Assembly: GCF_964204645.1 (NCBI RefSeq) | Contig: NC_134025.1 | Coordinates: forward strand, 7,192,001 to 7,256,000 | Reading direction: 5' to 3' | Source of the DNA: Tubulanus polymorphus | Taxonomy: Eukaryota; Animalia; Nemertea | Length of the DNA stretch: 64,000 bases | Part shown: positions 34,101-61,185 of the stretch, one piece after another | Layout: every line of letters begins with the position of its first letter | How positions within the stretch are numbered: position 1 is the stretch's first letter | The notes under the pieces: generated by a model | Databases searched by the model: none | What the model saw: only the letters and a program-made list of their open reading frames with translations | What the model was told of the DNA's origin: nothing | Made by a program: the position numbers and the translations under genes

Positions 34101-37100
34101 CCCTGAATACTTATTAAATACGTAAATTTGAAGCTCCGCGATCTTATACATCACAAAAAGGACAACGAGACAGGATAAAACTCCTGTCGGCCATTGAGAC
34201 ACGTATAGTTCAGGGTGACTAGATTTCGCGTTGACAACCGATCGTGCATCTCAATATAAATCCACGGTGATAGATGCAGATTTAAAGAAGAGCCGCTTAA
34301 TTCTTGACGCACACAAGACGGATGACCGTTACACCTGAGCTATTATCCGGACAGCTTTTATCATTTCCTTGCCACAAATACCCTGTGGAGCACATAAGGC
34401 GAATTTTTGATAACGTGTGTGTATTGTCTATAGCTTTTTGAATTGAATCTTCTATATTTCTTATATCACTGGGATATAACTTTTCTTGGATGGCATCATT
34501 TCTGTACGTCGGGGCATCCTTAACGAGGGATTGTATTAAAGCAAGCCAGCCATGAATGATAACTTTGCTGCGGTGCGCTTGGTTGAATTTACCAAAAATA
34601 GCGCGTGTGGTGTGCTGTGAAAATACCCGACACGATAACAAAATATCTTTATTCGAAGTATTATATCCAATTTGACTTGTCAAACGAAAGGCTAGGTGAT
34701 TAATTATAAAAGGTAAAATTTCAATGATTGAAACTTCACTCGGCAGCATGATGTAAAACAGCTCTGCAAATCTCTGCGGGAAATAAACACTGCTACTCGT
34801 GGGTATTAAAACTAAATCGAAACAGCTTGTCAATTAAAATTGAAAGATTCGCTACACGACTATTTGCATTACGTGGATATCCATCTAACTTCGTGCAAAT
34901 GAAGTCGAACGAAATCTGTGCTCAATTTCGCAACGGCATGTCGAAGCCTTCGCTATCGTTCAAACTAGGAATATTTCGACGCGGCTAAACAAGGATTTCT
35001 GGGAAAAGTTATAAAAAATGTATTCACGACAAAACTGAAATTTCAGACATATACATATATGTCGCGATATGTTCTGACTAGTTTCTTGGTAACGGGTACT
35101 TGAATCGGTGCCAAGGCATCAACAACGTAGTGGATGACGCGAACACAAAATAAGCCCTTGACAACGGAACTGCAATCACACCTGATTGGTTACTAATCTG
35201 GTGGCACTCGAGTGGAAAACTTGGCATTAATTGGCTGCCTTCATAGCCTAAGACGTATTAATTATTCGAACATAAACGTAGTGGAAGTCATGATAAACGA
35301 CATCGTGTAGAAACACGATACTCATACCAGCCCCTATGGCGTACGAAAATTGAACAGTTAGTTAACAGGCAGCTTGATCCAAACATACGCCATCATCGCT
35401 TATAATTTAAAAAACAAAACGCAATACGTGTACCGTAAGATTTATCAAAAATTAATTCAAACATCTCGAACTCAACCGAAAACTAAAAAAGGCTAATGAA
35501 AAATATGCTTGGTGATTACAAACAACGGTTTATAAGTGTTCACTGACGTCATATTGAACGTCAAATAGCAGTCAACCTCAGATTTTTTGACGCCGACAAA
35601 ATCGTTACGATAATTTTTATATACATTCATACCTAAGGGGTTCTGTGTGAGCCGATGCGCCGGTCAATGCAATTATCGATATATTCAAATCCAAAATAAC
35701 TTCATCGATCCTGAATACTGTCATCATCATTTCGGCTATGTGAGGAAGGGTTTTTCTTCCAACCGATATTATATAATTCATATTATACAATTCATTGTCG
35801 ACAATATTAAGCAATATGTGCATATATGTGTTATTTTTCAAGACGTCAATAAACCTTCAAGTAAGTTTTCTTGTTACTTCAGTTAGCCGTTTGTGCTGGC
35901 CGTCGGATGTGTCGCGTTGTGACGTCAAGTGCATTACCTCTAATAAAAAGTTTCAAATTTTCATAGATTCGGAATTTTGATAGACTTTCATAATCTATTG
36001 ATTCTCGTGACTTGGTTTTCAGAATATAGTGTCATAAGCCCCCGAATCTGAGCAGAGTAAACACTCAATACAAAACTTGTGATGAGCTTTAACCGGCGTT
36101 CAGTGATGTAGCTCTGCATCAGTGCAATAAGACGATAAAAGCGGTTTTATCACATATTAATGAAACTCAATTCCCCGAACGCAATCAGTAAACTCAGAGA
36201 GAAATGAGAAGACCACAACTCATCAAAGCGCTAAACTACAAGGTACATTATCTTTTAATAAGGATAAGCTCATCAATAGAATAACGTTATGTACTCGGCA
36301 AATATTATCCAACCTGCAATGCTAATGAATCTACAACCATTATACAAAATCCCGAAGACTAAACGATATACAAAAGGTATTGGTGTAGATATTCCAAAAA
36401 CTATCAGAGATCTACGACCACTGTTGCAAGCTTACAAGGTCACGAGTCACACATCCTCTAAACCCACACATTTGTTTGTAAATTTGTTAGTGGACCTAGT
36501 GCCCTGGGTTTCATTTTTAACCGAGAAAAACGAGAAGCAAATGCCATGATATTGCAACTACATGTACCGAGATAACTGCAGTGTACGTCTACTTCAGACG
36601 ATTCCGTAAAAATAATAGCCTTCATTTGGTATGAGAATCGTTTCTAGCATAGTTCTTGCGCTGGTTAAACATGGCATCGGCGCATGGCTATCGTTCCCCG
36701 ACCTTTATTTCTTCGTAAAGCGGCTATTTCATTAGTATCAGCGTAGATGGCTATTTTTTACACATCAAGGAAGAAGATCCGACAATTTTCACACATCAAG
36801 GCAAACGTGGTGTCACAGTATAATATACGGCTGGGAAAAGATCACATAGCCGACGGCAAACGGCTAAATATGAATGATATTTCTATCAGATTATGGCTGT
36901 ACTTGGAGAGGACTGACCGAATCAAAGAGGATAAAAGACCGTACGCCACATAATCACATAAAAAACAGCTCAACGAACGCGATGCATCGACTTAGCCTTT
37001 TCGTATGAATTGTCGACCTTCAAAAGACCTCTTTTTCACTACGAAATATCTTGATATCGAAATGTTTTGAAAAACATTTTTTTCTCTCCTCCCAGTATTT

Positions 37101-40100
37101 TGGAGACATAAGAGGATTAGGTGGATATGTATATATACATTACCTCAAAATCAACGTCTGCAAAGTATTTAATTCATTCAAGGTTCAATTAATTCGAATA
37201 ACATTTAACGCCTGAAGACATGTTTTTTGCGTTTATGTGATTCAAACATTTCATTGAAAAAGTTATCGAGTTTATACAATGACTGTCTTATTGTTGTCTA
37301 GTAAAACATTTGGGTTAAGTACACGCTATTCGTGGACTTATAAGATGTTTCAGCGTCGAGGCATTTTAAACGACAATGTACAGAAAACAAACCGTTACAC
37401 GCGCTTCCCTTTAATAGCGACGCATCCTTCAACGGGAAGATGAAAACGGTGAACGGGAAAGGAGAGCACTGACACTCGGATTGACTTGTGACTCATGACG
37501 ACAGCAAAAACCCATCGCCATCGCATGCTCACGCGCCAAAACAAAAACGAAAATCGGTTAGAATGCCAGGAATTCAACGTCGTTAAATCAAACGGTTAAA
37601 ACGAAAATTTACGGCTAAACATCGTCGAAATATCTTTTGCAACATATATTATAATGAATATCTCAACGATGTCGAGATACGAATATTAAGTAATGCCGGG
37701 ATGCACGCGATCGATACGGAAGAGGTTACGACTAACGAGTTTGAAGGATAATAACTTGAAACAATACAAAGCGACGGCGTGCCAGACGATAAGATGACAT
37801 ATTCGAAAATTCAATTAAATTCCGGGCAACGCGCGTCAAAATTGAACGCATATTAAGTATTAATGCGAATTTTGAACCCGGGGTCTCTTAAACCGACACG
37901 AGGATAATATCCATCGATATCGATTATCTTGACTTAACCGATCAAAAAAGTCGAGGAAACACAATGCCGACTGGTGCAATTTACAGTCAAATATGCAAAG
38001 GCCAAGGCAAGGCCATTCTATTTTCAGTGACAACAGAATCTTACGTTTAAAAGGCTGCATAAAGTTAAACATTTATGTAAGAGCAGCTTTTCATCGATAG
38101 ATTTGATTACTTCGAAGAAAACAGCCGAAAAATTACGAAATCTCTTTCTGCGATTTCGACTGGCTGAAACACCGGTTCGACATCCGAGCCTAGGGACAAA
38201 AAACCTGGTCAATTTCGTCTCCGCGCTTCTATCATCATCAGAGGCCATTTGTCACGCAGGCGGCGGACAACCTCCAGGTACGGTCAGTAATGTGTGGCCA
38301 GTCACACGCAGATCAAAGAATCAATCCATCTTCCTTGACAAATATACACTTTGAGTGTTGGCGTTTTTCTGTATGTACGCCGAGGAAACGATCGAGAAGG
38401 GAGACTTTGTCTCCACGTGTAAGCTCATCGAAATCAAAAATAATAGCAAGTTCGTATAAAACAGTTTTCGAAAGCAGTTTTAAAACAGTCTCTTTGCATG
38501 CTAGTACCCACGGATCTAGTGCTTTGACAATAATGATTTTATCCAGAATTTCACGACCGAACGAGCGTTGATCGTGTACTGATCCACTCGGACATATACG
38601 GGTTCTCGTGAAATACAAAACCTCGGAAGAAATATACGGCCCGGGATGTATCGGTGATGATGACTACGGTATTTTTTCAAACAAAGGTTAATTAGGGGTG
38701 TGATTGTTTACTATGATGAGACATGAACATCTGATGTCTTGCGTTTGTTTCTTGTCACATCTGCGATAAACGTTATGACACGAGCGAACTCAGTCATTCA
38801 TTCAATAACAAGCGCGTCTTCACATTTCCTGTGGTAGCTGCGTACTATTTTCTAAATTTTCAGATCGTAGTATTTTCCCGTCGTCTTGACCGTCGTGTAC
38901 ACGGTATAGATTTTCTACTGGTAATGAGAAACTTTAATGAGCAAGCCCGTGGCTCATCGTGTAAAACGAGAGTAAATTTCCGATCTAATCGCGATTCAAA
39001 GAGTCAAATAAATCCGAAACAAAGTTAATTTTTCACATCAATAGTTACATAATTTGTTAGGTTTGTTATAACGAGAAAAGACGCAGCGACTGTTAGATAA
39101 AGCAACGACTAATGAAGAATATTTCAAAAGCACATCACATCAAGAGTCGAAACATAAGCGTACCTCACAGGAAACGGAATTTTAGCAAATTACTTCTCTA
39201 TCTACGAGGCGTTCGTAAATGATCAAACGACTTGACATTATGTGACTTGCGAAAAGAAGAATTACTTGCAAGCTATTTCGATTATAGCCAAAAGAATCGT
39301 AGTCATGATGCCCACATCGGTGCAGAACGATTCTGGCAGTATAGAGAGTATGGTGGTACATCGGGGGTGTTTTACTATATATTTGTATAGAGATGTACAT
39401 TGAGAAAACTGAGCGATATCTAGGAGGGCGCTATAGATATATCGGGGGTTAACTGTATTTTGCATTTCAAAATTACATTATATGGTAAAGGAATGTGCAA
39501 GATTTATGAATGTTTTTACAATCAAGCACAATAATGAAATACAGAAGACCCAGAGAAGTCGATGCACACTCGACTAAGACACGATTTACAGGAGACGCAG
39601 TGTACACAATTTCAATACTCAAGATGATCAATCATAATTATGCAATACTTGTACATTAGACCTACCAATACATCACATTATCAGGGAAATTTTAGTTTCA
39701 ACGCCGATCAGAATGACCTCACGATGAAAATCTACTTTACTTTGCCGACTGTGTGGAAGTTGTTATTGGTATTGAAGACGTTACCACGAGTCGCCATGAA
39801 AAAACAATTTACCCAGCGAAATTAATAGTCACGATGGAGCCCGAATCAAGGAGATTCCGTCCATTAACCTTTCGCCGAGCATAAAGTTTATTTAGAAAGG
39901 TGACTTCATTGTATGGAAAACATGACAGTACACGTAGTAATTACATGATCCCCGCGCAAGACGCATTTGATGCAGGCTCACATTTTATACGCCATTAACA
40001 CAGCAGAGTGGTGGAAAAGAGAAGTAAAGACGCAGAGTAGATGGAAGATAGTGACGATTACACCTGAATGAAAGTGGCACGCGCAGACGTTTAATTCTCG

Positions 40101-41687
40101 CGGGTTCATTTTCCGAAAGTTCATTAATAAATCACGGCTAAACGACACTGGTGACATTTGACAGCCAGTCATGGCTGAAATACTATACTTAAAACACAAA
40201 AACTACACTATGTATTTGGCTGTAAAATAAAAGAAAGGCTGCATTCGATACCTCAACAGATTCGTATGTCAATAGATACATGTACACGTATACTGATAAC
40301 TAATCAATGTGAAATACAGTAAATCATTGAAGTAATAAAATGAAAGATCAATCTTCTCTACATTGCAATTCTTCTCATAGTCGCGAAGGCCGGGACCCGG
40401 GGAAAAATGAAAAAAATACTGATACGCACTCATTTACTTTTTTCTTTTTTTTACGGATTAATCAGACAAACTGCTACTGACAAGCACGTATAGATTGATG
40501 AAGGCCGATGAATACGACGAATTATTATGCACGGGAATATTGAAAGTGATCATGTAAAAAATTACCGGACAGTATCAAGTACCCGATGAATATAACGATG
40601 ACCGGTGGTTGCATGACACTTGCGACAAATGGGTTGAGTATTTCTGACAAACAGCACGCAATACGATGACAGATCATCAGCTTACGAATCAACGTGCGCA
40701 TTAAAGCAATAAATCTCTACCATAGTCGACCAAACAGCAGCCAGCCAGCGCAACGGAATAAAACCGTACTAGCATAAGCGTCCGTTAGATCGGACGACGA
40801 GAAAAACTACACTACGGCTACAAGGAAGACAGTCAGCGTATTGTTTATGCATCGGTAGTGATAGATTTAGAAAATAATGTTGGGGAAAATCTGCCTAAGA
40901 TCCGCTTAATATTCAAATTTCATAATGTTCGTAATCCTCTGTTCAGACAGAACATTTCTAGTCTGAGTCCATTTCAGTTGAATTTCACGACCTCCACGCT
41001 GGACCCCTCGTCAGAGAACTACCGATACTCATGGATTGGAAAATTCTATTGATGTTTGTGGGATTATCTAGTTTCGGCCTGGCTTGGACCGTGTAGATTT
41101 GAACTTTACATCTCGAGCACCGACCGGAGTATTGATGGACAGACACAGTACGCGAATGAAAAAGGTTGAGTGCCACCGACGTTTGGCATCCCTAATTTGT
41201 TCCCGCTTGTTCAACCCCTTCATCATGTAGTCTAAGATTCTCGAAACTATTGCTGTTATAACAGTGACTGGCATGTTTAACTGAACCATGACCGAATATA
41301 CCACGGTATCACTATCAGAGCCGAAACCACCCGCTTTTGTTCGGTTTTAAGTTAAATACGCCCAGCCACGGGCACGAAGACATGACATTGACATAGATGA
41401 ACTAGATTTGTTTGAATTCTTTATCATTTCAGTTTTCTTTAAGCGTAGGCCTATGATAGATTTTGTTTTTTCTTTCAAAATTTAAAGAGAGTTTATTCAC
41501 CCGGGCTCAAACGCTACAGAAACTTTTCGCCCAAATAAACAATTGCAAGCAATGCCACGTGCCTTCTCACGATCGTAAGAAACTTCGTAACGGGCGCGGG
41601 AGTCAGCGACGGATGAACCTATTTTACGGATATGGACTTCAGGCACTTCTACCCATTTACTCGGAGCCACCCTGAAGCCTTTCATTC

Positions 41688-41700
41688 CAAGATGGCAGCC
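41688..41700 (+). promoter_or_regulatory. YY1-like motif overlapping the cysteine synthase start codon
   Basis: CAAGATGGCAGCC resembles the AAGATGGCGGC motif typical of short-5'UTR housekeeping and mitochondrial genes. Confidence 0.45.
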
Positions 41701-42685
41701 TCCTTGATAAAAGTTTTTTCTACATTTCGGCAAATTAAAAACAAAAATGCCGTCGCCAGTATCGTTCCATTATCACTATTCGCACGTAGGAGCATGTCAA
41801 ATGTAAGGACCTATCAATTGAATAAATTGTTCTAATATGACATCGTCCTTCCTTCTGGAGGTCGGATTGAAAATGAAATGATGATAGTCATAGAACTTAA
41901 CTGACTGATTTGACAGTTCCACCTGTCCACTCCCCAGTTCCTCCTTGCTTGGTGACCTTCCACTTGGTACGTAAGTACGGGTATTTGACTCCATTATCAT
42001 TTCGTTTTTATTTTTATTTTTAGTCTATCAGAAAGGGGTTGGTTGGAATGGTAGGCAGGTAATATAGTTGTGGTGATAATGTCCATAGCCGATATCTGTT
42101 TACCATGTGTACCTTACTTCTAAATAGATTTGATATTTTCCAGGACTCCTCTTGTGCGACTTAATAAAGTTAGTGATGAAATGGGTAAGCCATGATAGTG
42201 GTGATTAATTGATTTGTAGAAAATAATTGAGTTTTCATTTTAATGATGGTATAATTGTACTTCTTCATATTTCAATTGATTCACATTAATTTAGGTTGTG
42301 AAATATTAGCAAAGGCTGAGTTTGCTAATGGAGGAGGATCAGTCAAAGACAGAGCAGCATTATACCTCATAAAAGATGCTCAAGAGAAGGGTCAGTGAGA
42401 ATGCAATACTGCAATTGATCCAGTTCCACATGGACATGGACATGGAGTCAAGATTAATTCATTTCTACGCGCTACCTTGTCCTGGAAATTGTTTCTGATA
42501 CATGATATGTGATGTTTTGTAGGCTTACTGAAACCAGGTGGAACGGTTATAGAAGGAACTGCTGGTAATACTGGAATTGGTTTGGCTCATTTATGTTGTG
42601 CAATGGGATATAAATGTGTCATATATATGCCTGATACGCAATCAAAGGTGTTCATTTTATCAGCTTAACTCACTTCATCTTTCAA

Positions 42686-42736
<51 letters not shown>

Positions 42737-44302
42737 TGAAAACAAATTGTTACTTCAGGAAAAGATTGACATGTTAAAAACACTAGGTGCTGATGTCAGA
42801 CCTTGCCCAGCTGTCCCATGGGAAGACCCGGATAATTATAATCATCAGGTAGGGTAGGTACTGGTATATAGTGTGCTTAGAATTACTTCTTATAACATTG
42901 ATATGTGTCTATCGAGGACAAATTTTACCGTGTTTTTTAGGCTAAACGATTTGCGGATGGATTAGAAAATTCTGTGTGGACGGACCAGTTTGATAACACT
43001 GCAAACAAAAGGGCTCATTATGAAACCACAGGACCTGAAATTTGGGAGGAAACAGGTATGAAACAATACAAAATATACCTGTTCAATAAACCTTGGAGTA
43101 ATCTCCAAGAAAAAACCGTATCTTAACTTTTGAGTGTACAACTGTTTATGTATTTTGTTTGTCTTCTGTAGATGGTAAAGTGGATGCAGTTGTATTTGGT
43201 ACTGGAACTGGTGGAACTCTAGCAGGAGTGGGCCAATATCTAACTGAGAAAAATCCCAATGTGAAAGTCTTTCTAGCAGATCCTCAGGTATAGATTTTCC
43301 AAAAGCATGAGTTCCTTGCGAAATGACAGGAAAAAATCAACATGGCTATATATATGTATTGATGACAGCGAAGAATATTCTTAATTTCTCTTATGTCCTA
43401 GGGGAGTGTATTGTATAACTGGTTTGAATATGGGAAATTAGAAAGAACCGATGGTATCTCTATCACCGAAGGCATTGGACAAGGTCGAGTAACTAATAAT
43501 CTAAAAAATGCCCCTATTAGTAAAGCGTTTCTAGTCACAGATGTTGATGCTGTTAGTATGGTAAGTAAAGTTTTCTGATATTCTGTTTAAATGTTGACTG
43601 GACGTTCCTTTGCTCAATGTTTTTATGTTATCATTGAAGACATTTCGCCTGCTTCATGAGGAAGGACTCTTTGTTGGAGCATCGTCTGGATTGAATGTCA
43701 ATGGTGCCGTCCAAGCTGCTAAACTACTTGGTCCAGGTCACACAATTGTCACTTGCCTGTGTGACACTGGTCAGGTAATTGTTTACTGATTTATGATGAA
43801 ATAGTAAAATGCCCAAACTACGCAAATTGGATTCACTCATTCTCATTATGTGGACCCCTTGAGTTAAAAGGTCTACTGTAGTTATTACGGTATAAGTAGA
43901 TTAAAGTTTATTGCTCCACAAAAAATATAATTGTTACGAGTATGAATTCAACCATTTCTTTTGCAATACCCATACACTGTTTACCTTTGTCATCACTTAA
44001 ATTAACAGTTTGATGTTTGAAATTCCTGCAATTTCAGAGATATTATGCTAAACTGTTCAGCAAGGAATTCTTGAAAAGTAAAGGTAAGGCAAATTTTGAG
44101 AGATTAGACAGGGATTGGTAGTAAAGCATGCTAGAATTTTTCTTATAAGAATGATTCATTCAAACATAGAATGTTTTTTTCCCATTAAGAACTGCTGATC
44201 TTCAGCTGCTGAAATACAATTCTTAGTGTTGGTATCCTTTACTGATCCTTTTCAGATTTGTTGGACTGTATTCCAGAGCCATATAGAAAATCTCTTCATT
44301 GA
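41692..44302 (+). CDS. Mitochondrial-targeted PLP-dependent cysteine synthase (O-acyl-serine sulfhydrylase), fungal Cys1a/CysB-like; 12 exons, 371 aa
   Basis: Exons 41692-41802, 42024-42058, 42144-42184, 42295-42390, 42523-42647, 42759-42848, 42941-43055, 43172-43287, 43402-43560, 43640-43774, 44038-44083, 44256-44302. All introns are GT-AG with compatible phases, and the total is 1116 nt ending in TGA. Motifs: [23 protein letters not shown] (PLP lysine), [72 protein letters not shown]. The N-terminus [37 protein letters not shown] is basic and has no acidic residues. Confidence 0.95.
42686..42736. repeat. (CAT)17 microsatellite in intron 5 of the cysteine synthase gene
   Basis: Read directly from the sequence. 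Confidence 0.97.
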
Positions 44303-50400: not shown

Positions 50401-53400
50401 ATGTCCGGCAGTCTGGGTCTAATGATGGGCATTAGGAATAGCTCTTCCACTGAAATCATGTTATCCGATCCAGTAGAACCACGAAAATCACTGCAAAATA
50501 TTGAGGATGTAAGTTAGTAATCATAAATATTTGACAGTATATTTGTACTCAAGATGATGTTGATACGATCCAGTTTCATGATAGCATTTCAGTTGCGGAT
50601 CTTTTTTTCAATTTCACTATCCGAATATGATTATCAAAATTTGTAACGCTTGAATATTCAATTAGATTTTCACAGATCTAATTCAGTTTATGTTTATGTA
50701 ACCTGTTTGAGAAATTTGAATGTGACATTGGAGATGTTTCACATATATCTGTAATGATGTCTGGATGTTCACGCACAATATTATTGGTATTCATACGATT
50801 TTGATATATTTTCGTCTGTACATGGGGATATATTGCTGAATGGTTGTTTGAACAGTCTGATATTTTATTGTATGATATTCTCTCGGTTTATACAGTAGAG
50901 ATTAATGGTGTATTTATATCACGCAATATTATATAACGTATAGCTTAACGATTGACCTGTTGTAGCGTTGGAATATTAATCATTTTTATGAATAATATCC
51001 CTATATAATTGATGTGCTGGAATAAGAAGTTTCATTATTATTATGAACCAAATATCAGCTAACCTAAAAAAAGCAACTAATTTGTCAAATCAAAAGATTC
51101 TGAAGATTTGCATTTTTATGGATGATTAGTTTCAAATGAACTATAAGTGCCTGGCATAACATCCTCTGCCCCAAAATCCAAGCATTTGTCATAATATTGT
51201 GAACCAATGACCTGATTATTCAAAGTTAGAAAGACAATGCTGGTATTTCATTACTGTAATGTTTGACCAGGCGCTCCTTAATGCGTTTGATGAAACATGG
51301 TAATTATGATTCCAAGCTGTCAACAGTAATTTCCTCATTATTTCAGCTTCTGAGCAGCATAGCCGATGACCTAGATTTCCTCCTCAATGACCTATATAAA
51401 AACTATCCACAGATCGGTCCAACTCGGGTCTCACCATGGGATGAAGAAGGTATAATTCCAAGCGAAAAACAGTAAGTGCTTCATCCAAAAGAGATATCTA
51501 AAACATTCTTTTTGGTCTAATTTCTTTTGTGCTATAAAATCTTGCAAACATTACGTAACATATGAAACAGGAATCAAGAATGAAAGCTGAATTATTTAAT
51601 CGTAATCATTTTCAGCGCTTCAATATTCGAGCAGTACATGGCAGGAGTTGAAGCTGATGATGAGGCATCGGATGATGAAATGCCACGGTCCGATGCAGAT
51701 GTGTCTTGCCAAAACTCTGTCATCTCAAGTCATCTCGACATATTTGCTTTAGAAGATTCTGAAAAGGTGACTTTTGCCGATCAATTGATTCCTATATTAA
51801 TAAATCTTAGAACATTTTATAAATTGCGTCGTGATTAAATTGTGTACCGAATCATATCCTGCTCAACCAGTTCTAAATGATAATTATTGTATCATACAAA
51901 ACAATGAACCAGCATCTAAAAAGTGATTGTATTTATTAAAGCTTTGTAGTTACGTACATTGACGTATATGCATGTTATATGTATTATCTTCTTCATGCAG
52001 GCGCTGCATATTCCTGAAAGAGAGGAAATAGAAGAACCTGCTGCTCCATTATCATTGATTGAGCGTCTCATCAAGACCCATCCCATCTGGTACCTTCCCG
52101 ATGTCGACCGCAATGAAGCTACTAGCATTCTTCGCAACCATAATGTCGGCGTAAGTACTTGAACTTTAAAGTACTGTACAGGATATATTATCAATCTATT
52201 GATACTATCATTGAACTGAAATTGTTCTACTGTTACATCGTTTTTTAGACGTTTTTGGTTCGTCAATCTAGTCACAAAGACACGATGGCATTATCATTGA
52301 AACTAAATCACAGCGACCCAGGGTTGGACCATTATTTGATCGAATTCACAGACAAAGGTTTACACGTAGAAGGCTCAAACCATTATTTTCCAGCAATGCC
52401 TCTTCTCATAACACATTATACTGAAACTCTGTAAGTCAATTTAATAGATGGATACATAAATTCATGGATGAACAAGAAGATATTCATTGTTGATTAACCT
52501 GTTTATGCCAGATTGACCAGAAAACAGCTGTGCCTTCAGAATTCTTGACATTGTATATGGCATCATTCGATTGTATCTTGATAGAAATTGTTGGTAATGT
52601 ATCCATTCATTTACAGGGATGAACTACCAATTCAGTTGAAACTTCCTAACTTGATTTTAAAAGCTGAAACTGTTGAGCACCTCGCATCACTGGCAAATCT
52701 TGGTCAAGGTAGCTATCATCGAAAATACCGTACATGAAAATCGATCATACGGTAGGTGTTACATTGGAAAGCATCATCTCATTTTATTTCATTATAGGAT
52801 TTTGGACCGCATATTTCGATGGAAATGATAATGAGAATTTTGTCGAAATCGAATGCCCGAGAAGATCTGCATCACCGGATACAACGCTCGTTGCGCACAC
52901 TGTTAGTTCACCAATATCGATTGGTAAATTCATCCAGAATAAACCGAAACGAGACATTTTCCAGACACCTTCAGGATCGAGTCTATTGTCGGATTGTTCA
53001 TTAATGTTGTTGCAATCATCAAACATTCAATCAAACTTGGATACATGGGAATCTCCAAATGAACTCAATGCGTTTAGTCGTGGTCAAGAATCAAAATTCT
53101 CTACGTCGAAAAGCATGAACAAATTTTCAGCTGGTTTCGGGGCTGAAAGCTCTGAATATCCTGATACTCAACAGCTGGATGAAGTTCAAACAAAAGAATG
53201 CAATTTTTCTGAAAAACTCGATACGTTTAAAGCTTTAACGAAGTCACAGTGTTATCATTTCAATACGGAAGAACTCATGTTTGAAACAGTAGAATCTCAT
53301 TGTAGCGATATTAGATATAAACCGAAAGATGACAGGTTATCTCTAAAAAGTATATCCAGTTTCACTGATGTGGAACATTGGCACGATCCACCTCCACTTC

Positions 53401-56400
53401 CGGAAAGGAATTACAGCATTGGAGAGGAAGACCACTTGTCTCTTAGTTCATCGAATGTGCCAAGAAACTCTAAAAGTGATAAATATGAGTCCGCGAATGA
53501 ATATTTTTCTGGAAATTTTAGTGATCGATTGAGCGATTATGAAGATGTATGGACAAATTCACCATGTACGAGTGCCTCAAATCTGCATCAGTTATCAATA
53601 CCGAAAATAGAACTTAGTAAACCTGGCTCTGAGAGTTTGTCAAGCATATCTTGTAACGAACAGTCTCTCTCAAAAACAGGCAGTCTGTCATTCCTGAATG
53701 CTGTGTATAACGGGGATGATCATTCGAAGTTACAAAGAGCTGATAGTTTAGGTTTCATAAATCCTATGTTTGAGCAGTATACTGTTGATAGACGCGATGT
53801 CAAAAGAAATGAAAAAGAGGTAGCAAGTGTCATTGTGGATGTTTTTCCAAATGATGTTTCTGTGTGTCATTCTAAACATCTTAGAGTTTCTGTCAAGGAT
53901 GATGAATTATCAAGCTTGTCATATGAGATGAATTCAAGTCCAGAGATGTTGATGTTCGATGCACTTGAAAGTAGTCATTCAAGTGATTCAAAATGTCTTC
54001 CGCCCCCACCACCGAAAACGTGTAAGAACAGGACAAAATTACCTGATGTGCTCATGTGTTCATCAGAAAATATGTTCAGCCGTGATGAGCATTGTAATGA
54101 ACCACCTCCTGTGCCACCAAGACGAAGAAAACAAAGAAGAAGTTCTGTTCCAAATATACCGAAGAAAGAATGTCCAATACCAAACAGGACAAAATCTGTG
54201 TACGTTCCAACTACAGAAAAAGAGTCCCTTCCGTCATTTTCACCTGCTGAAGATAAAATATGCAGCGATGTTGCAACAGCGGTTGCAGATATTGAAAGTA
54301 GTTTACAGGACATAACGTTCGAACTGGAAAAACTTGATGCAGCGCAAAAGACTGAAACTGATGAAGATTATACCGAATTGCCAACATCTAGTCAACATGC
54401 GAATGTGGAAAGTATGAACGATGGATTGAAAAGTGATAATGACATGCTTCACAATACTCATAATGGCCATTTGAAACATTCTCTTATGAATAGTGCCCGA
54501 TTACAGAATCTCCATGCATTTGTGCCTATTCGAAACTCTGTGACATCCAACCGAACTTCGTTTTCAGAAACTTCAACAGTTGAAGATTTACTACGAATGA
54601 CATCACCCGGGTTAAGCGACAACGGTCACGAAATGGGCGATCATGTACCATCTTATGACAACTTGAACTGCACTATGCCTCCTCTTTCTGCGGCAAGTGT
54701 CAGCACTGTGTTTTGTAAGCCGTGGGATAGTAGTTTGTGGGAGAATTTACTCCAAAACACGACAAGTGGTTGTCGTTTATCTGTCCGTTCTTCCCAACTT
54801 CCTTTACCAAACAAAGATAAGATAAACGATTCGATGCTAGATTGGATCAATAAACCGGATGATGGTACATCAATTTACGGTGGACTGAAATCTGTTGATA
54901 ACATAAGTTGCATTTCATTAGCTGATAGTTGGACATATCAAGCAGCCGATATTGCGCCAGTTATACCGATAAAGTGTGCAAAGGCTACCACAATGCTGGC
55001 TACTGAACACCATAGTTACCATGCTTCACAAATTGAGAAGGATATTCAAAACGATACGCCGATTTGTATGAGAAAGAATCATCCCGTTAAAGAAGAAAAT
55101 GAGAATCGCGTTACAGAAAATTGTTCACCAACGATGGAGAATATTTCTAACTCCTGGGTGAATATATCTCTGGATAATCCAACAACACGACCAGTGACTA
55201 TTTCCAAATTTCCCACTGATTCTGTGACAGGGAGAAATAGTTTCTTTTCCAGTCTCAGTAAGTGTAAACCTTTCAATACATGAAATGTCTCTCATTCTAT
55301 GAAATTTTTTTAATTTCTCGCCAAAAATCTAATTTTCAGGTGCTCCACGACTTGTAAGCTTGAAGAATCGTGGAAAGGAACCAGGCATTAAGATCTGTTC
55401 TTTTATTCATAAGTAAGACGATATCGATTTTGAAATAACTTGCATATTCTTGACTCAAAATGTATAAGCTACATGCATCATTTGTATTCAGGTTGGCTAT
55501 GGATCATTGCACAACCTTTGGTGTAACCATTGACAATTTTATCCAATGCACAACAGAGAGCTGCGAGAAAAGTCCTCAGGTCGCAATGCGTAATGTAAGT
55601 CATTATAATTCCTGTAATATACAGTACCCTACCTTTAAGTTTCATTTAATTTGGCTTCATTTTATGCACAATTTCCATGTATGTTCACTACAGGTACGGC
55701 AGTTCATGAGTGGAATCAAGAATTATCTTACGAAACATGGTGAAGGAAATTTGGAAGATATAATTGAAGAAGAGCGTAATAAGGTTGATATATACTTAGC
55801 TCTCCAACAGTTTCCTTCACCAGAAATACACACAGTATATAGAGGGGTTTAATATGTGTTGATGATTTGCTTTGTTTACACAGTTACAATGTGACGAATT
55901 CTTGAACATCGACGCCATCATAGAAGGAGCACTTCACAAGTGCGTAATTAAACCACTCAAACAGCACTTGTACTCCTTATTTGTACACCACTATACAAAG
56001 TAAGTAGTGATAATATGATAATTTGCATATTTTGTACCATGGAAATGTTGCCATTAAACATATCTAGCTTTCATATTACTCAGTAGTGGCATTTTGTTGA
56101 TGTGTTTCAGGAATGGCAGTTTAGAATTATTGTCAAATAATATCAAATATGCACAGACGAAAACTCCTGAAGAATTAGGAGTTCGGGTGAGTTTTAAATA
56201 CATCTACTTGTATGACAATACGGCAGTTGAGAACATACTTTTCAAAGAATGAATTTTCTTTAATTCCAGCCAGGGTTGGTTCCTCCTCAGGGCACATCTC
56301 TAGATATTATCAATCATTTTCTGAAGAAGATGCAAAGAGCTTACTCTCCTTTGAAAAAGCTGGAAAACCTACTAGGTGCTACGGATTCGATTTACAAAGG

Positions 56401-57485
56401 GGTGAGTGGACCAACAATTCAATGATAATTATTCTCCTAGTAAAATGATTTATGACAATTTCTTAATTTTGTAAACTTAAGGTGCAAGAATTGGATGGAG
56501 ATCAGTTGAAGCCAGTTAGTTGCATGGGAGCAGATGGTAAGCAAGAGTGTTTCTATGATCTTACTACCCGTAGTTTTATCATCACTGATTTCTCTAGATT
56601 GAAATAACTTGATTCGTCATACAGATTTCTTGCCGATGTTGATATGTGTGCTAGTCAAATGTAATCTCGTCTGTGCTGAGGTTGAGGCTGATTATATGTG
56701 GGGTTTGTTACACCAGTCGCTACTCAATGGTGAAGGTGGATATTATTTAACGATGCTCAGCAGTGCTGTCCATGTTCTAAAAACTCTGCGTGAAGTCGAA
56801 GAGACTAATGCGAGCTTTGTTATGAGACAGGTAATTATCTAAAACATATCTTCAAACTTTAATTGTCATAAGGTATTCAATGACTTTCCTCATGATTTTA
56901 GCCAAGTGTTCAGAGTATAAGCGAGATGCAGGGCTTCTTGAAAGTATTGATACCAGATGAAGTGAATGACAGTATTCTATCTCATTCGTTACCGATTCGG
57001 CCGAACATGACGACGAAAGAAGTGTGTAAGTAGTACAAAATGAACTCTTTAAGATACAGAAAATTTGCCCTTAAGGTCATTATCAGTAATGCTCACCTTT
57101 CACCTTGTTTACAGGTAATATGATTGCACATAAATTTCGGATAACAAATCCTCAGGACTATGGTCTGTTTGAACTCATCAATAAACAAGGTAAAGTTATC
57201 GGTAGTAGCAATTTGAGGAACCAGTTCGCCATTCTGTCAGTAGAATTAATTCAAAGATAGCTACATGCTTAGTTTTAGTTGATTTAGATTTCAGATCTCT
57301 GGAACTGAGGTGAAACCAGACACGCCGATAGATAAACATTTGACATTTACTTCTTTTCAGAAACGCAATTACATGACACCCAGTTACCACTTACAATAAG
57401 ACTAGATCTTCAGTTGGAGGGCAAAGACTGTAGTTTTGCATACAAACGAATCAATGCAAAATTTGCCTGGCCATTGCATCTATAA
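50401..57485 (+). CDS. RIN2: Ras and Rab interactor (RIN2/RIN3 / Drosophila sprint-like) Rab5 GEF: SH2, Pro-rich linker, VPS9, RA domain; 18 exons, ~1480 aa
   Basis: Exons 50401-50508, 51347-51471, 51616-51766, 52001-52150, 52249-52430, 52617-52708, 52798-55257, 55340-55412, 55492-55594, 55694-55783, 55884-55999, 56111-56186, 56270-56401, 56482-56536, 56625-56830, 56902-57025, 57115-57189, 57361-57485; total 4443 nt in frame, ending in TAA. SH2: ERLIKTHPIWY...TFLVRQS...DELPIQLKLP. VPS9: YSPLKKLENLL, MGADDFLPML, GEGGYYLT. RA: LPIRPNMTTKEVCNMIAHKFRITNPQDYGLF. The first coding exon is the least certain part, and the symbol denotes the family rather than strict orthology. Confidence 0.92.
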
Positions 57486-57774
57486 TTCATCTGTGAAAAC
57501 GATTGTACCATGTAGAGATTGACAGAATCTGATTGATATACCGACCATGAAATGTGTATTTTGACAAACAATTGTTTTCTGATTAAGATTGATTGTACAT
57601 TTTGTGACTAATACATTTTAATGTAAAAAGCAGTTTATAAAATCGAAGTCTATCCTATTGTAATTAAGACCGACCAGTTATGTCCATTGTTTTTTTAAAT
57701 TTCAGTAGCCAGGCTACCAAATCCTCTGAATTGGCTTATCTTGTTCATGCAATTGTATTCATAATAGTATATTA

Positions 57775-57865
57775 AATAAAGCAAATCATGTAAATTAATG
57801 TTTACATTGCTTTGATGTAATTATGCTGTTCAGTATTATTATTGTTTTATACAGCTTCTAATAAA
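57775..57865 (+). terminator. Polyadenylation signals of the RIN gene
   Basis: AATAAA at 57775 and 57860, downstream of the stop at 57485. Confidence 0.5.
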
Positions 57866-58311
57866 CCAGTTATTAATACAAAATTGCATTCTTAAATGTG
57901 CCTTCTTTTTAGTTATGGTTTTTCCCCTCAAGACGTCATGGAAATGGGTCCAACCTACTTCCCTGGCCTGACTGTTGAACGACTGTCATTTCGAGGTAAT
58001 TAGATAGAGCTAAGGATGACTCCATGAGGTTAGAACTTCCACATTTCATTTTGCATTTCGGAAGGATGTTCTTATTGATAGTACAGAATGACTGACTCTT
58101 CGAGCAACTGATATTAGTTCCAGTACATCCCCATGTCCACGATTCATCTCAGTCTCCAGCTGTGGTTGGTTTCAGATACGGTACCCGGGTTTTGTTGCGG
58201 CCAGAGAACACCCAAGATGAAATGAGCAGTAAGATGATATGTAGACAGAACATTTCACATTCAGCGAAGCAGAATGTTACAGTACAGAAGTTGTCCTCAC
58301 ATAAACTCTTT

Positions 58312-58391
58312 AACAGCACTGGTTGTTCAGCTAATATGCAGGACCAATATCAACAGCACTGGTTGTTCAGCTAATATGCAGGACCAATATC
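58312..58391. repeat. Perfect 40-bp tandem duplication
   Basis: AACAGCACTGGTTGTTCAGCTAATATGCAGGACCAATATC occurs twice (58312-58351 and 58352-58391), between the convergent RIN and TMEM179 3' ends. Confidence 0.95.
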
Positions 58392-59240
58392 TCACCTTAG
58401 TGTTGACCAAAAAATGACCAGGACTGCGTGGAGTCATTGACCAGATTAGTCTGAATACCAGAAGTTCCCTGTCCTTTCTTTATAGGCAAGTCATTGGTTC
58501 CTCTGGTCCATCTCACAGTCTGTCCTTTGAGAATAGGGGTTTATTTATCTCCAAGTACTGTGGTTTACCACAGAGATTGAAAAGTCTAAGATACTAAAAG
58601 CAGTCTTTTTAGAAGTGCTGGGATCCAAAAGACCAAGAAACAATGAAAACAGATTATTCAAAATAGAATCTATTATATTTGCCATAAAGAAATAATTTCA
58701 ATACACAGCCGAAGTGGAAAGTTATCATATTTAAATCAATGTAAAGCACCATCTCAAACGTAAGTACCAGCGGCGTAATACTCAAAAAGTAAAATACAAT
58801 ACAAACACAAAATAAACACATCGTATTTACATAAGACTTAATTGCGACAGATAAATTACTTCAACACAGCTTCATTACAATGTCACTGGAAAATGAAGAT
58901 ACCTACAAAAATCAGCATAATTGAGGATAAAGTTATTATCAAAAATTCTAATCTAGTATTTATGAATTTTTGTTAATATACAAATGTTTAATCAATTCTC
59001 TTAAGCCTTTAATTCAGAAGATTGTCAACAGTTTTAAGAAATTGTTTCGACGTAATATTCTTCAATCATCACAATATTTTCAACAGGGATATCAAACAAC
59101 CGTATTATGAAATCTCATTAGCATTAACACGATTAATTCCTTGTTGTTAAAGGGTTGAATAGCAATTTTATGGATGGTCCCTATAAGTAAAATGATCTTT
59201 GACAGTTTCTTTGTCGCAAGTGTCCTAATTCAGTTCATTA

Positions 59241-61153
59241 TTAAATACTACTAGCGTCTGATCGATGCACAAGACGCTCTCTTTCATTTTGGACTGCTGT
59301 CTTCATATCTTCAATTTCAGAAAGTTTGTACATCTTAAAAACCCACATGATACTCAGAACAAGCCAACAAAACCAAACAGACCAAAGTCCAAACTGAAAA
59401 GAAAAAGTTTAAACTTGTAAACAAAAACAAGTAGGGAGATAACAAAATTCTATGAAAAATTATCTAAAAATTAATGAAATATTTATCATTTCAGTTTCTA
59501 AATTATTTTGTTAAGATTAGATGATACCTGAGCCATTCCAAATTGAGTGTAAAATTTTGATGAGATTATATTGCTGCCAACCATTAAATCAATTTGAGCA
59601 TCTTGACAGCTGAAACACCAAGAAAATCAGATCTTTATGCTATCATTGAGACCAAACAGCCATAAAGCTTCCTGACGATAAGAATTTGAGGATAGAATAT
59701 ATTCATGCATAAGTACACTTGCACACATAAAATACATTACAAAATGGATAAATTAAGATGGATATAACATTGACCTGATAAGTTCAATCTACTATAGCCA
59801 GTAATGCTCATAAACGCATTAATTTCAATGAATTTCAATTAGATACTGTGTAGATAGACTTGATGATGATAAGCACTATGAACTTGTGTGACTAAAACGA
59901 GGATGTAAGACTGATATGAATCAATACTCCACAGCTGGTTCAATAGCACATCGATGTATATAACAGCACAATGACAGTTCATGAGCGTGAAAATGTATAT
60001 GGCCTAGTGTGTGAGCATGAAAATTCATACTTACGACATATAATTCTGATTAAGTAGATGGCACCATGCTTGGAATCCGGTGGATATCGTAATAGCAGCG
60101 GCGAATGTCAGTATCGTAAAACCACAACTTAACAGCATATTACATAGACCTTCATTCCAACCACTGGAAGATTTTTAAAACTCTAAAATAAAGGCTCAAC
60201 GACCCATTATTGCCTAACATAAATATAGAAAGAACTTTTAATAAGAATAGAAAGAACAGGTCAATTTTTACCATATCGCGGACTTAACACTGATGATCGC
60301 TAATAGTATTTTAGCTGAAACGTTGCTCGAAATATAATCATTTTGATATAGAACTTTTCATTTTTTGCTAATTTATCGTGGGATTATCTTATCGCGGACT
60401 TGTTCCTGCATTTTGACAAGCTATTCACCTCCCTCGATTTAAGACTTATTTTCCGTTTAATTTTCAAGGTTATGCTTCCTGTTTGACTCATAGCAAAGAT
60501 CATGAATCTTCCTTATACCACATCAGATATACACACTATAGAATGAATTTTTGCTTTCTGTGTAAAAACCCTTTTTCTGATGAAAGGTTTTACATGTTAT
60601 TGTTGTATTTCCTTATATTTGTTAGTACCAGCAAGATGCTATATGATGCTATATAACAGGAGAATAGTTATGTACATCAACACTTAAAAAGGGGTACGAG
60701 TTGACCAGGTATGAGATGTCCGTAAATCATGTAGCCTCTACTAGAATTCCGGAGCGACACAACCTAGGCCTATAGGTCTACTGTAATAATAGTTAACTTA
60801 CTTAATTCATTATTACCACATCGTTTATTTTTTTGACAAGACATGTCATCTTACCGAAATACTTACATGTCGATTCCTTTACCTAGGTGAACAAATGAGA
60901 CAATTGTTGAGAGTAAACAGACAAACATTGTCGCCACTCCGACGAATAAACTGAAGTTACATCCAGTGGAAGTACCCCATTCAGTAATAACCAACGTTCC
61001 ATTGTTCAACCAGTTCCCTCGAGCATTTAACAAACAATGTCCATTGAAATCACTTTGGTTAACGGCCAATGGAATGAAAATGAAGAAAGCTAGCACAAAT
61101 GCCACCGAGTAAGTCACTGTCTTAATTAGAATCACTAAATTTCCTAATCCCAT
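59241..61153 (-). CDS. TMEM179: Transmembrane protein 179 (four-TM); 4 exons, 216 aa
   Basis: Exons 61153-60867, 60163-60035, 59609-59528, 59393-59241; total 651 nt with GT-AG introns. Family motifs: PLAVNQSDFNGHCLL, EWG...CNF, ISTGFQAWC, SCQDAQID, FYTQFGMAQFGLW, ERERL. Confidence 0.93.
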
Positions 61154-61185
61154 TTCTACAACTGTCTATTTGATTTTGACGTTAT

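Follow-up and report, generated by a model that had tools for sequence, protein, structure and literature searches.

A Spliced Cys1a-Type Cysteine Synthase Gene with a Predicted Mitochondrial Leader in the Nemertean Tubulanus polymorphus

Results

Structure and Splicing of the Gene

The window, i.e., the whole stretch of DNA that was analysed (64,000 nucleotides of Tubulanus polymorphus, positions 7,192,001 to 7,256,000 of contig NC_134025.1), harbors on the forward strand a gene of 12 exons (41692-44302, modelled in window coordinates), whose joined coding sequence is 1116 nt long, corresponding to 371 codons followed by TGA, with zero internal stops. The 11 introns are 79-263 nt long and all of them have GT-AG borders. 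An earlier reading made from the letters (the sequence-only reading) had described an intact 371-aa PLP enzyme with characteristic motifs and eleven canonical introns, and this description holds: the frame is open, the motifs EGTAGNTG, DQFDN, and SITEGIG are located at window positions 42552, 42983, and 43459, respectively, and the protein possesses a single fold-type II PLP domain in which the Lys, TAGNT, GTGGT, and SITEGIG loops are present. The features of the gene are the following:

41632..41634 (+), in-frame upstream ATG, which would add 20 residues; spliced contigs do not reach 41632
41692..41802 (+), exon 1, basic and acid-free leader of 37 aa, predicted mitochondrial presequence, with R-x-M-S directly before the mature start
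41794 (+), within exon 1, Met35, the start of the database protein
42024..42058 (+), exon 2, where the conserved domain begins (model and contigs)
42144..42184 (+), exon 3 (model and contigs)
42295..42390 (+), exon 4, with Lys80 (42345-42347), the counterpart of the PLP lysine K74 of Aspergillus fumigatus Cys1a
42523..42647 (+), exon 5, asparagine loop TAGNT (residues 107-111)
42759..42848 (+), exon 6, NYN motif (162-164)
42941..43055 (+), exon 7, QFDN (Gln182-Phe183)
43172..43287 (+), exon 8, PLP phosphate loop GTGGT (216-220)
43402..43560 (+), exon 9, second substrate loop of 10 residues (263-272)
43640..43774 (+), exon 10, Ser311-Ser312 and Asp338
44038..44083 (+), exon 11, Arg342-Tyr343
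44256..44302 (+), exon 12, coding part with the stop TGA

In the contigs assembled from run X5, every one of the 11 junctions is joined, 41802>42024 among them, so that the splicing of exon 1 to exon 2, on which the sequence-only reading of the leader depended, is seen in a contig. Those of run X3, which belongs to a separate study, join 10 of the 11, the exception being the junction between exons 1 and 2 (exon 1 is uncovered in this run, and X3 and X5 cover 36000-41700 at a repeat only); one of them runs on to 44437, representing the 3' UTR. In run X1, a contig retains intron 1, and runs X2 and X4 yielded unspliced pieces only between 41300 and 44700. The junctions are thus supported by assembled contigs of runs that have no RNA label on record; since spliced transcripts would produce contigs from which precisely the GT-AG introns are missing, they were read as spliced. 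Five in-frame combinations with alternative exons in intron 1, all of them using the weak donor 41785, were discarded, as no contig joins them. Intron 5 contains an (ATC)n microsatellite (42686-42736).

A search with exon 5 over the 268-Mb assembly returned one match, located in the window itself (contig C1, 7,192,001-7,256,000), and a second Cys1a copy was not found in the T. polymorphus genome. Exon 9 matches at 100% a T. polymorphus database protein of 337 aa (LOC141913319, P0001), in which Pfam recognises PF00291 alone and no CBS domain. This protein begins at Met35 of the model and the leader is therefore omitted, which is probably a truncated annotation and possibly a short isoform.

Downstream of the gene, at about 51,200-58,400 (+), lies a RIN1-like gene with a VPS9 domain and an open frame of 856 codons, which can be classified from its domains as a Ras-and-Rab-interactor type. 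Further along, a hydrophobic exon (60,863-61,165, minus strand) gave no significant Pfam match; we presume that it resembles TMEM179. On the other side, positions 39310-39409 are occupied by a dispersed repeat of ~100 bp with a very high copy number (in run X1, summed contig depth >18,000 vs. 34 in the flanks), which runs X3 and X5 contain as well.

Family Assignment and Phylogeny

Among the 25 NCBIfam families shown, the only one whose cut-off is passed by the T. polymorphus protein is PRK10717 (477 bits vs. a cut-off of 387), the models for CBS (TIGR01137; 317 bits vs. 510), CysK (262 vs. 351), and CysM (209 vs. 394) being failed (TIGR01136, TIGR01139, and TIGR01138 for CysK/CysM). The same pattern of passes and failures was obtained with the homologues of Porites (a coral) and Ciona. 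The protein shares 60-78% identity with 34 named animal homologues (the named and mostly full-length sequences from 120 listed, the unnamed ones and nine short, fused, or near-duplicate named ones being left out), 61-62% with seven of 120 listed fungal proteins, 51-57% with four alphaproteobacterial loci, and 38-40% with the CBS of the worm itself and with CysK and CysM of Escherichia coli. In one bivalve record among the animal sequences listed (P0076, 1158 aa), ABC-transporter and EF-hand domains accompany a Cys1a domain; it is probably a merged gene model.

In a FastTree phylogeny of 142 sequences (three partial animal models were dropped and 96 of 148 unnamed representatives were kept for coverage), the gene falls into an animal clade (support 0.98) that is sister to the fungi (0.985). 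The IQ-TREE phylogeny of 36 sequences recovers the animal clade (99/97) and the animals joined to the fungi (94/88), with CBS apart (100/98). In these trees, where named orthologues stood in for the sequences of Schizosaccharomyces pombe, Aspergillus, and Acropora loripes, the T. polymorphus protein nests among animal proteins named cysteine synthase 1 and away from E. coli CysK and CysM. Nematode CYSL proteins are termed CysK-like in the supplement of Salazar et al. (2022, PMC9506716), and the CysK side is represented in the trees by E. coli CysK, the CysK models failing on the T. polymorphus protein. The hypotheses of the AU tests, run under the simpler LG+G4 model, were preset, but the members of each group were chosen from the first tree; a grouping of the gene was rejected with CBS (p 2e-61), with the alphaproteobacteria-containing clade (p 5e-5), and with the fungi alone (p 0.015).

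Of the 42 residues named for Cys1a of A. fumigatus, 37 are matched, vs. 23 in the worm's own CBS, 22 in CysK, and 20 in CysM, the count of 37 being inflated, partly by construction, by the anchoring of the mapping on shared motifs; of the five mismatches, three lie in an indel region and two are conservative.

Two facts might suggest that the gene is a CBS in truncated form, or that it stems from contamination or from recent transfer, fungal or bacterial: the best PDB matches (5i7w, 5jis, and 5jjc, all of them labelled cysteine synthase) are followed by CBS entries, and the identity to fungal proteins is as high as about 61%. However, the CBS cut-off is missed, the protein has neither a haem-binding N-terminus nor a CBS domain, a separate CBS with a haem-type N-terminus and a C-terminal extension is encoded on contig C6, and all three groupings were rejected by the AU tests; in addition, the 11 introns are spliced and the window lies inside contig C1, with the RIN/VPS9 gene at its side. 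Such an origin is extremely improbable, and the CBS, CysK, CysM, and recent-transfer readings were dropped on the basis of the NCBIfam cut-offs, the IQ-TREE phylogeny, and the AU tests. The gene is assigned on its sequence to the animal Cys1a clade, as the T. polymorphus Cys1a orthologue. It is native to the animal, being neither a contamination nor a recent transfer, because of its spliced introns, the RIN/VPS9 neighbor, and its position among animals in the trees, as the sequence-only reading had argued from the introns and the neighbor genes.

The Leader and the Predicted Localisation

The peptide encoded by exon 1 is as the sequence-only reading had it, i.e., a basic and acid-free leader of 37 aa (three Arg, three Lys, and zero Asp/Glu) ending in RRSMSN. 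A basic and acid-free N-terminal leader is commonly read as a mitochondrial presequence. Basic leaders (an extension of 20-36 residues with at least two Arg/Lys and at most one Asp/Glu) were recognised in 30 of the 34 named animal homologues; the other four comprise three database models without the leader region and one with a neutral leader. An R-x-x-S pattern, which is a permissive one used without a control, occurs near the mature start in 21 of these 30, as RSMS does in T. polymorphus. The hydrophobic moment of the leader (6.4) is mid-range with respect to the animal homologues and below most of the fungal ones. By its composition, the leader appears ordinary for an animal homologue.

The same enzyme might be mainly cytosolic if translation started at Met35 (41794), exon 1 being mostly 5' UTR. 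This would agree with the start of P0001, with the three leaderless and the one neutral animal sequences, and with the fact that the ATG at 41692 is reached by no spliced contig, exon 1 being covered in the spliced X5 contig from 41743 to 41802. Against it, this contig reaches 51 nt beyond Met35 on the upstream side, no stop interrupts the frame back to 41692, whose ATG is flanked by A (-3) and G (+4), and the leader shares its charge with 30 of 34 homologues and the place of the (permissive) R-x-x-S pattern with 21 of 30. A mainly cytosolic enzyme is therefore judged quite improbable, and exon 1 is likely to represent a mitochondrial presequence, as predicted from composition and homologues: charge and R-x-x-S fit, with the start codon lying beyond the cover of the spliced contigs.

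The sequence-only reading had also quoted a mitochondrial route in corals, which does not stand in that form: the string "mitochond" is absent from the main text and from the supplement PDF of PMC9506716, and the localisation stems from fungi and from prediction. A preprint reports a predicted mitochondrial signal for A. fumigatus Cys1a (bioRxiv 10.64898/2026.06.04.730285), and cys11 is placed among the mitochondrial genes of S. pombe in PMC10582590.

Partner Genes in the Genome

Partner genes were searched in the whole genome (G000) exon by exon, a procedure by which genes can be missed. The sequence-only reading had proposed that a Cys2 homologue be looked for, and a candidate is available: a MetX gene on contig C7 (17.212-17.216 Mb), found in six pieces with TIGR01392, one exon of which matches at 100% a T. 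polymorphus protein of 477 aa (P0121) that passes the PRK00175 cut-off. Its N-terminus is basic, the first position of the turn is Gly, and the nucleophile elbow is followed by Ser-Leu. The Arg and Asp listed for the MetX-G3c group are conserved in the alignment, but are unmapped to the reference numbering of PMC9506716. According to the same paper, the turn of the MetX-G3c group, i.e., of serine succinyltransferases, reads GLSA/P or GISA and is accompanied by Ser-Leu/Met; the turn of the C7 protein is GLSG, which agrees with GLSA/P at three of four positions.

This difference bears on the acyl group used, since a GLSG-type MetX could be an acetyltransferase or a bispecific enzyme, O-acetyl-serine then being the substrate in vivo. 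The solved structures nearest to the C7 protein are labelled homoserine O-acetyltransferase, the corresponding enzyme of the tubeworm Lamellibrachia luymesi was called a serine O-acetyltransferase (PMC10077716), and fungal Cys1a accepts O-acetyl-serine, the S. pombe enzyme reportedly preferring O-succinyl-serine by ~threefold only (as cited in bioRxiv 10.64898/2026.06.04.730285). On the other hand, the GLSG turn recurs in 14 of the 120 MetX matches listed, mostly from early-diverging fungi (58% identity in the alignment), one of them being automatically labelled "Serine O-succinyltransferase"; no CysE over the cut-off was found in the genome, each of the three matches falling on a hexapeptide domain within a fusion gene that is unrelated; and animal MetX homologues were placed in MetX-G3c by Salazar et al. 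(PMC9506716). An acetyl-based route is thus considered rather improbable, and the C7 gene is a probable candidate, on motif and alignment grounds, for a Cys2-like serine O-acyltransferase acting as the partner of Cys1a. In DcsE, the first Gly of the turn reportedly admits serine, and the fourth residue is said to affect homoserine.

Besides the CBS on C6, the genome contains a cystathionine gamma-lyase (CSE) on C2 and, on C4, an SQR (E 4e-29 to mitochondrial SQR structures), which was missed by PF21706 and by one pattern and found by a third probe. Basic leaders are present in all three of Cys1a, the C7 MetX, and SQR. The search for the sulfite reductase domain PF01077 gave zero candidates in the genome, with 11 of 14 controls positive, so that a gene split over exons could escape it. 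A match to the PAPS-reductase family on C4 presumably resembles FAD synthase.

Two further loci were observed. On C1, at 25,750,805-25,752,085 (+) (L037), a second PLP gene of Cys/Met metabolism lies in exon-sized pieces; the structures closest to one of its exons are O-acetylhomoserine sulfhydrylase and methionine gamma-lyase, not cystathionine gamma-lyase, and its product might provide a further source of sulfide, or a further sink for it. On C12, at 5,734,326-5,748,303 (-) (L022-L024, L033-L034), three tandem units are found, with a GC content of 0.49-0.58 in their bins vs. about 0.38-0.43 around. Their long open frames (660, 833, and 826 aa) each encode a fusion of a Gfo/Idh/MocA oxidoreductase and a hexapeptide N-acetyltransferase (3mqg, an acetyltransferase of LPS biosynthesis, is the best PDB match, E 1e-46), and two of the units run into a WbpE-like DegT aminotransferase, the remainder of which is spread over two more open segments, suggestive of an interruption by introns. 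We take this fusion to resemble the bacterial WbpB-WbpD-WbpE diacetamido-sugar steps in one polypeptide; it is a candidate for an intron-bearing horizontal transfer in an animal.

Discussion

The Proposed Route

The explanation that we consider very probable is that a spliced Cys1a orthologue is imported into mitochondria and, as predicted, makes cysteine from O-succinyl-serine and a sulfur donor; from the genes at hand, the most likely route in T. polymorphus is the O-succinylserine one described by Salazar et al. (2022). To judge from composition and homologues, exon 1 would be a cleavable presequence, cut near RSM/S. The C7 MetX would move the succinyl group from succinyl-CoA onto serine, and Cys1a, with PLP bound to Lys80, would carry out a ping-pong beta-replacement with release of succinate, in which H2S or a persulfide made by SQR would be added to the aminoacrylate, as fungal Cys1a suggests. 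The negative searches point to a worm that may be unable to reduce sulfate. Since no sulfate reduction was found, the route would recapture sulfide rather than assimilate sulfate; this sulfide might come from the sediment, the gut, or the worm's own CBS/CSE activity, beside an intact transsulfuration.

The sequence-only reading had regarded the route as an alternative to transsulfuration. The part of this claim concerning the presence of Cys1a together with a Cys2-like candidate stands; however, CBS and CSE are both kept, and Cys1a would therefore be a second, additional route and not a replacement.

The main job of the enzyme might also be the removal of sulfide or persulfide (or of cyanide, as a beta-cyanoalanine synthase) in a burrowing worm, rather than a net supply of cysteine. 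With CBS and CSE present, cysteine supply as such does not need Cys1a; the deletion of cys11 in S. pombe leads to more H2S, and Cys11 takes GSSH and H2S (PMC8577491), a paper in which SQR, persulfide, and Cys11 are linked; and nematode CYSL paralogues are involved in H2S handling, according to titles in the reference list of PMC9506716. Conversely, one copy of the gene was found, and nothing about it points to a special adaptation; its orthologues are present in animals of fresh water, land, and reefs; and Cys1a turns over slowly (with O-acetyl-serine, 1.5-5.7 per s; bioRxiv 10.64898/2026.06.04.730285). The worm also possesses an SQR as the usual sink. Removal as the main job is on balance unlikely, with an appreciable chance left to it; it is compatible with the proposed route to cysteine, from which it differs in physiological weight only. 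Sulfide detoxification in T. polymorphus, also suggested by the sequence-only reading, may be possible.

Tentative, and less probable than not, is the idea that, where animals retain CBS and CSE, Cys2, Cys1a, and SQR might form a module of the mitochondrial matrix in which succinyl-CoA is spent and sulfide or persulfide is trapped as cysteine. It would then be a sulfide sink of the assimilatory kind, which vertebrates have lost and which is conserved in lineages from sponges to tunicates. The three proteins of T. polymorphus have basic leaders, and a mitochondrial setting is not mentioned in the animal papers cited here.

Comparison with Known Systems

It is known that Cys1a and Cys2 occur across the animal lineages searched, with vertebrates, arthropods, and nematodes as the exceptions (Salazar et al. 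2022, PMC9506716), and that both genes, taken from coral, complement S. pombe mutants (PMC9506716). The pair of A. loripes (Acys1a and Acys2) belongs to the same family and its Cys1a is likewise intron-bearing (362 aa vs. 371 in T. polymorphus); a Cys2-like partner exists in the genome of both the coral and the worm. The homologue of the coral Porites is 69% identical to the T. polymorphus protein and falls into the same clade. Unlike T. polymorphus, which keeps CBS and CSE, Acropora is described as lacking CBS (PMC9506716), and the GLSG turn of the worm's MetX differs from the GLSA/P or GISA of that study.

Lamellibrachia luymesi, with LlCS (374 aa) and LlCYS2, is a lophotrochozoan worm with both routes and a fungal-like enzyme, in which sulfide was proposed as a direct source of sulfur (PMC10077716); the likeness drawn here is one of published description. 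It differs in being a symbiotic seep tubeworm, whose LlCYS2 the authors called an acetyltransferase.

In S. pombe, Cys11/Cys1a, Cys2, and Sqr (PMC8577491, PMC10582590) are the counterparts, the enzyme belonging to the same clade according to the literature, and an SQR is found in T. polymorphus as well; the yeast is wholly dependent on the Cys11 route, while in the worm the sulfite reductase domain was not found in the genome. For Cys1a/CysB of A. fumigatus, of which structure and kinetics are given in the preprint mentioned above (bioRxiv 10.64898/2026.06.04.730285), the likeness extends to a predicted mitochondrial presequence and to the coexistence with CBS; the sequence of the leader differs, and Phe151 and Arg344 correspond to Trp157 and Lys346 in T. 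polymorphus. The bacterial PRK10717 proteins ("cysteine synthase A"), whose cut-off the T. polymorphus protein passes and of which four alphaproteobacterial loci share 51-57% identity with it, have neither leader nor introns and form a separate clade (AU p 5e-5).

The presence of the pathway in this lineage had been supposed to be possibly undescribed. This novelty is thin, as the pathway is already reported across most animal lineages (PMC9506716), with both routes in Lamellibrachia (2023, PMC10077716). No report of a nemertean cysteine synthase was found in the literature; "Nemert" is absent from the main text and supplement PDF of PMC9506716, whose species list (Data S1-S3) may include one.

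Significance

The Cys1a of T. polymorphus is real but ordinary, being a further case of a described and widespread family. With it, a nemertean joins the invertebrates for which the pathway had been reported, and it suggests that the database annotation of the protein lacks its leader. Since most carriers also keep transsulfuration, the question is why an enzyme fixing sulfide has been retained, and, in more general terms, whether in animals the pathway operates in mitochondria and, in those that keep CBS, acts as a sink for sulfide; the question of retention would be better suited to a tractable invertebrate than to T. polymorphus.
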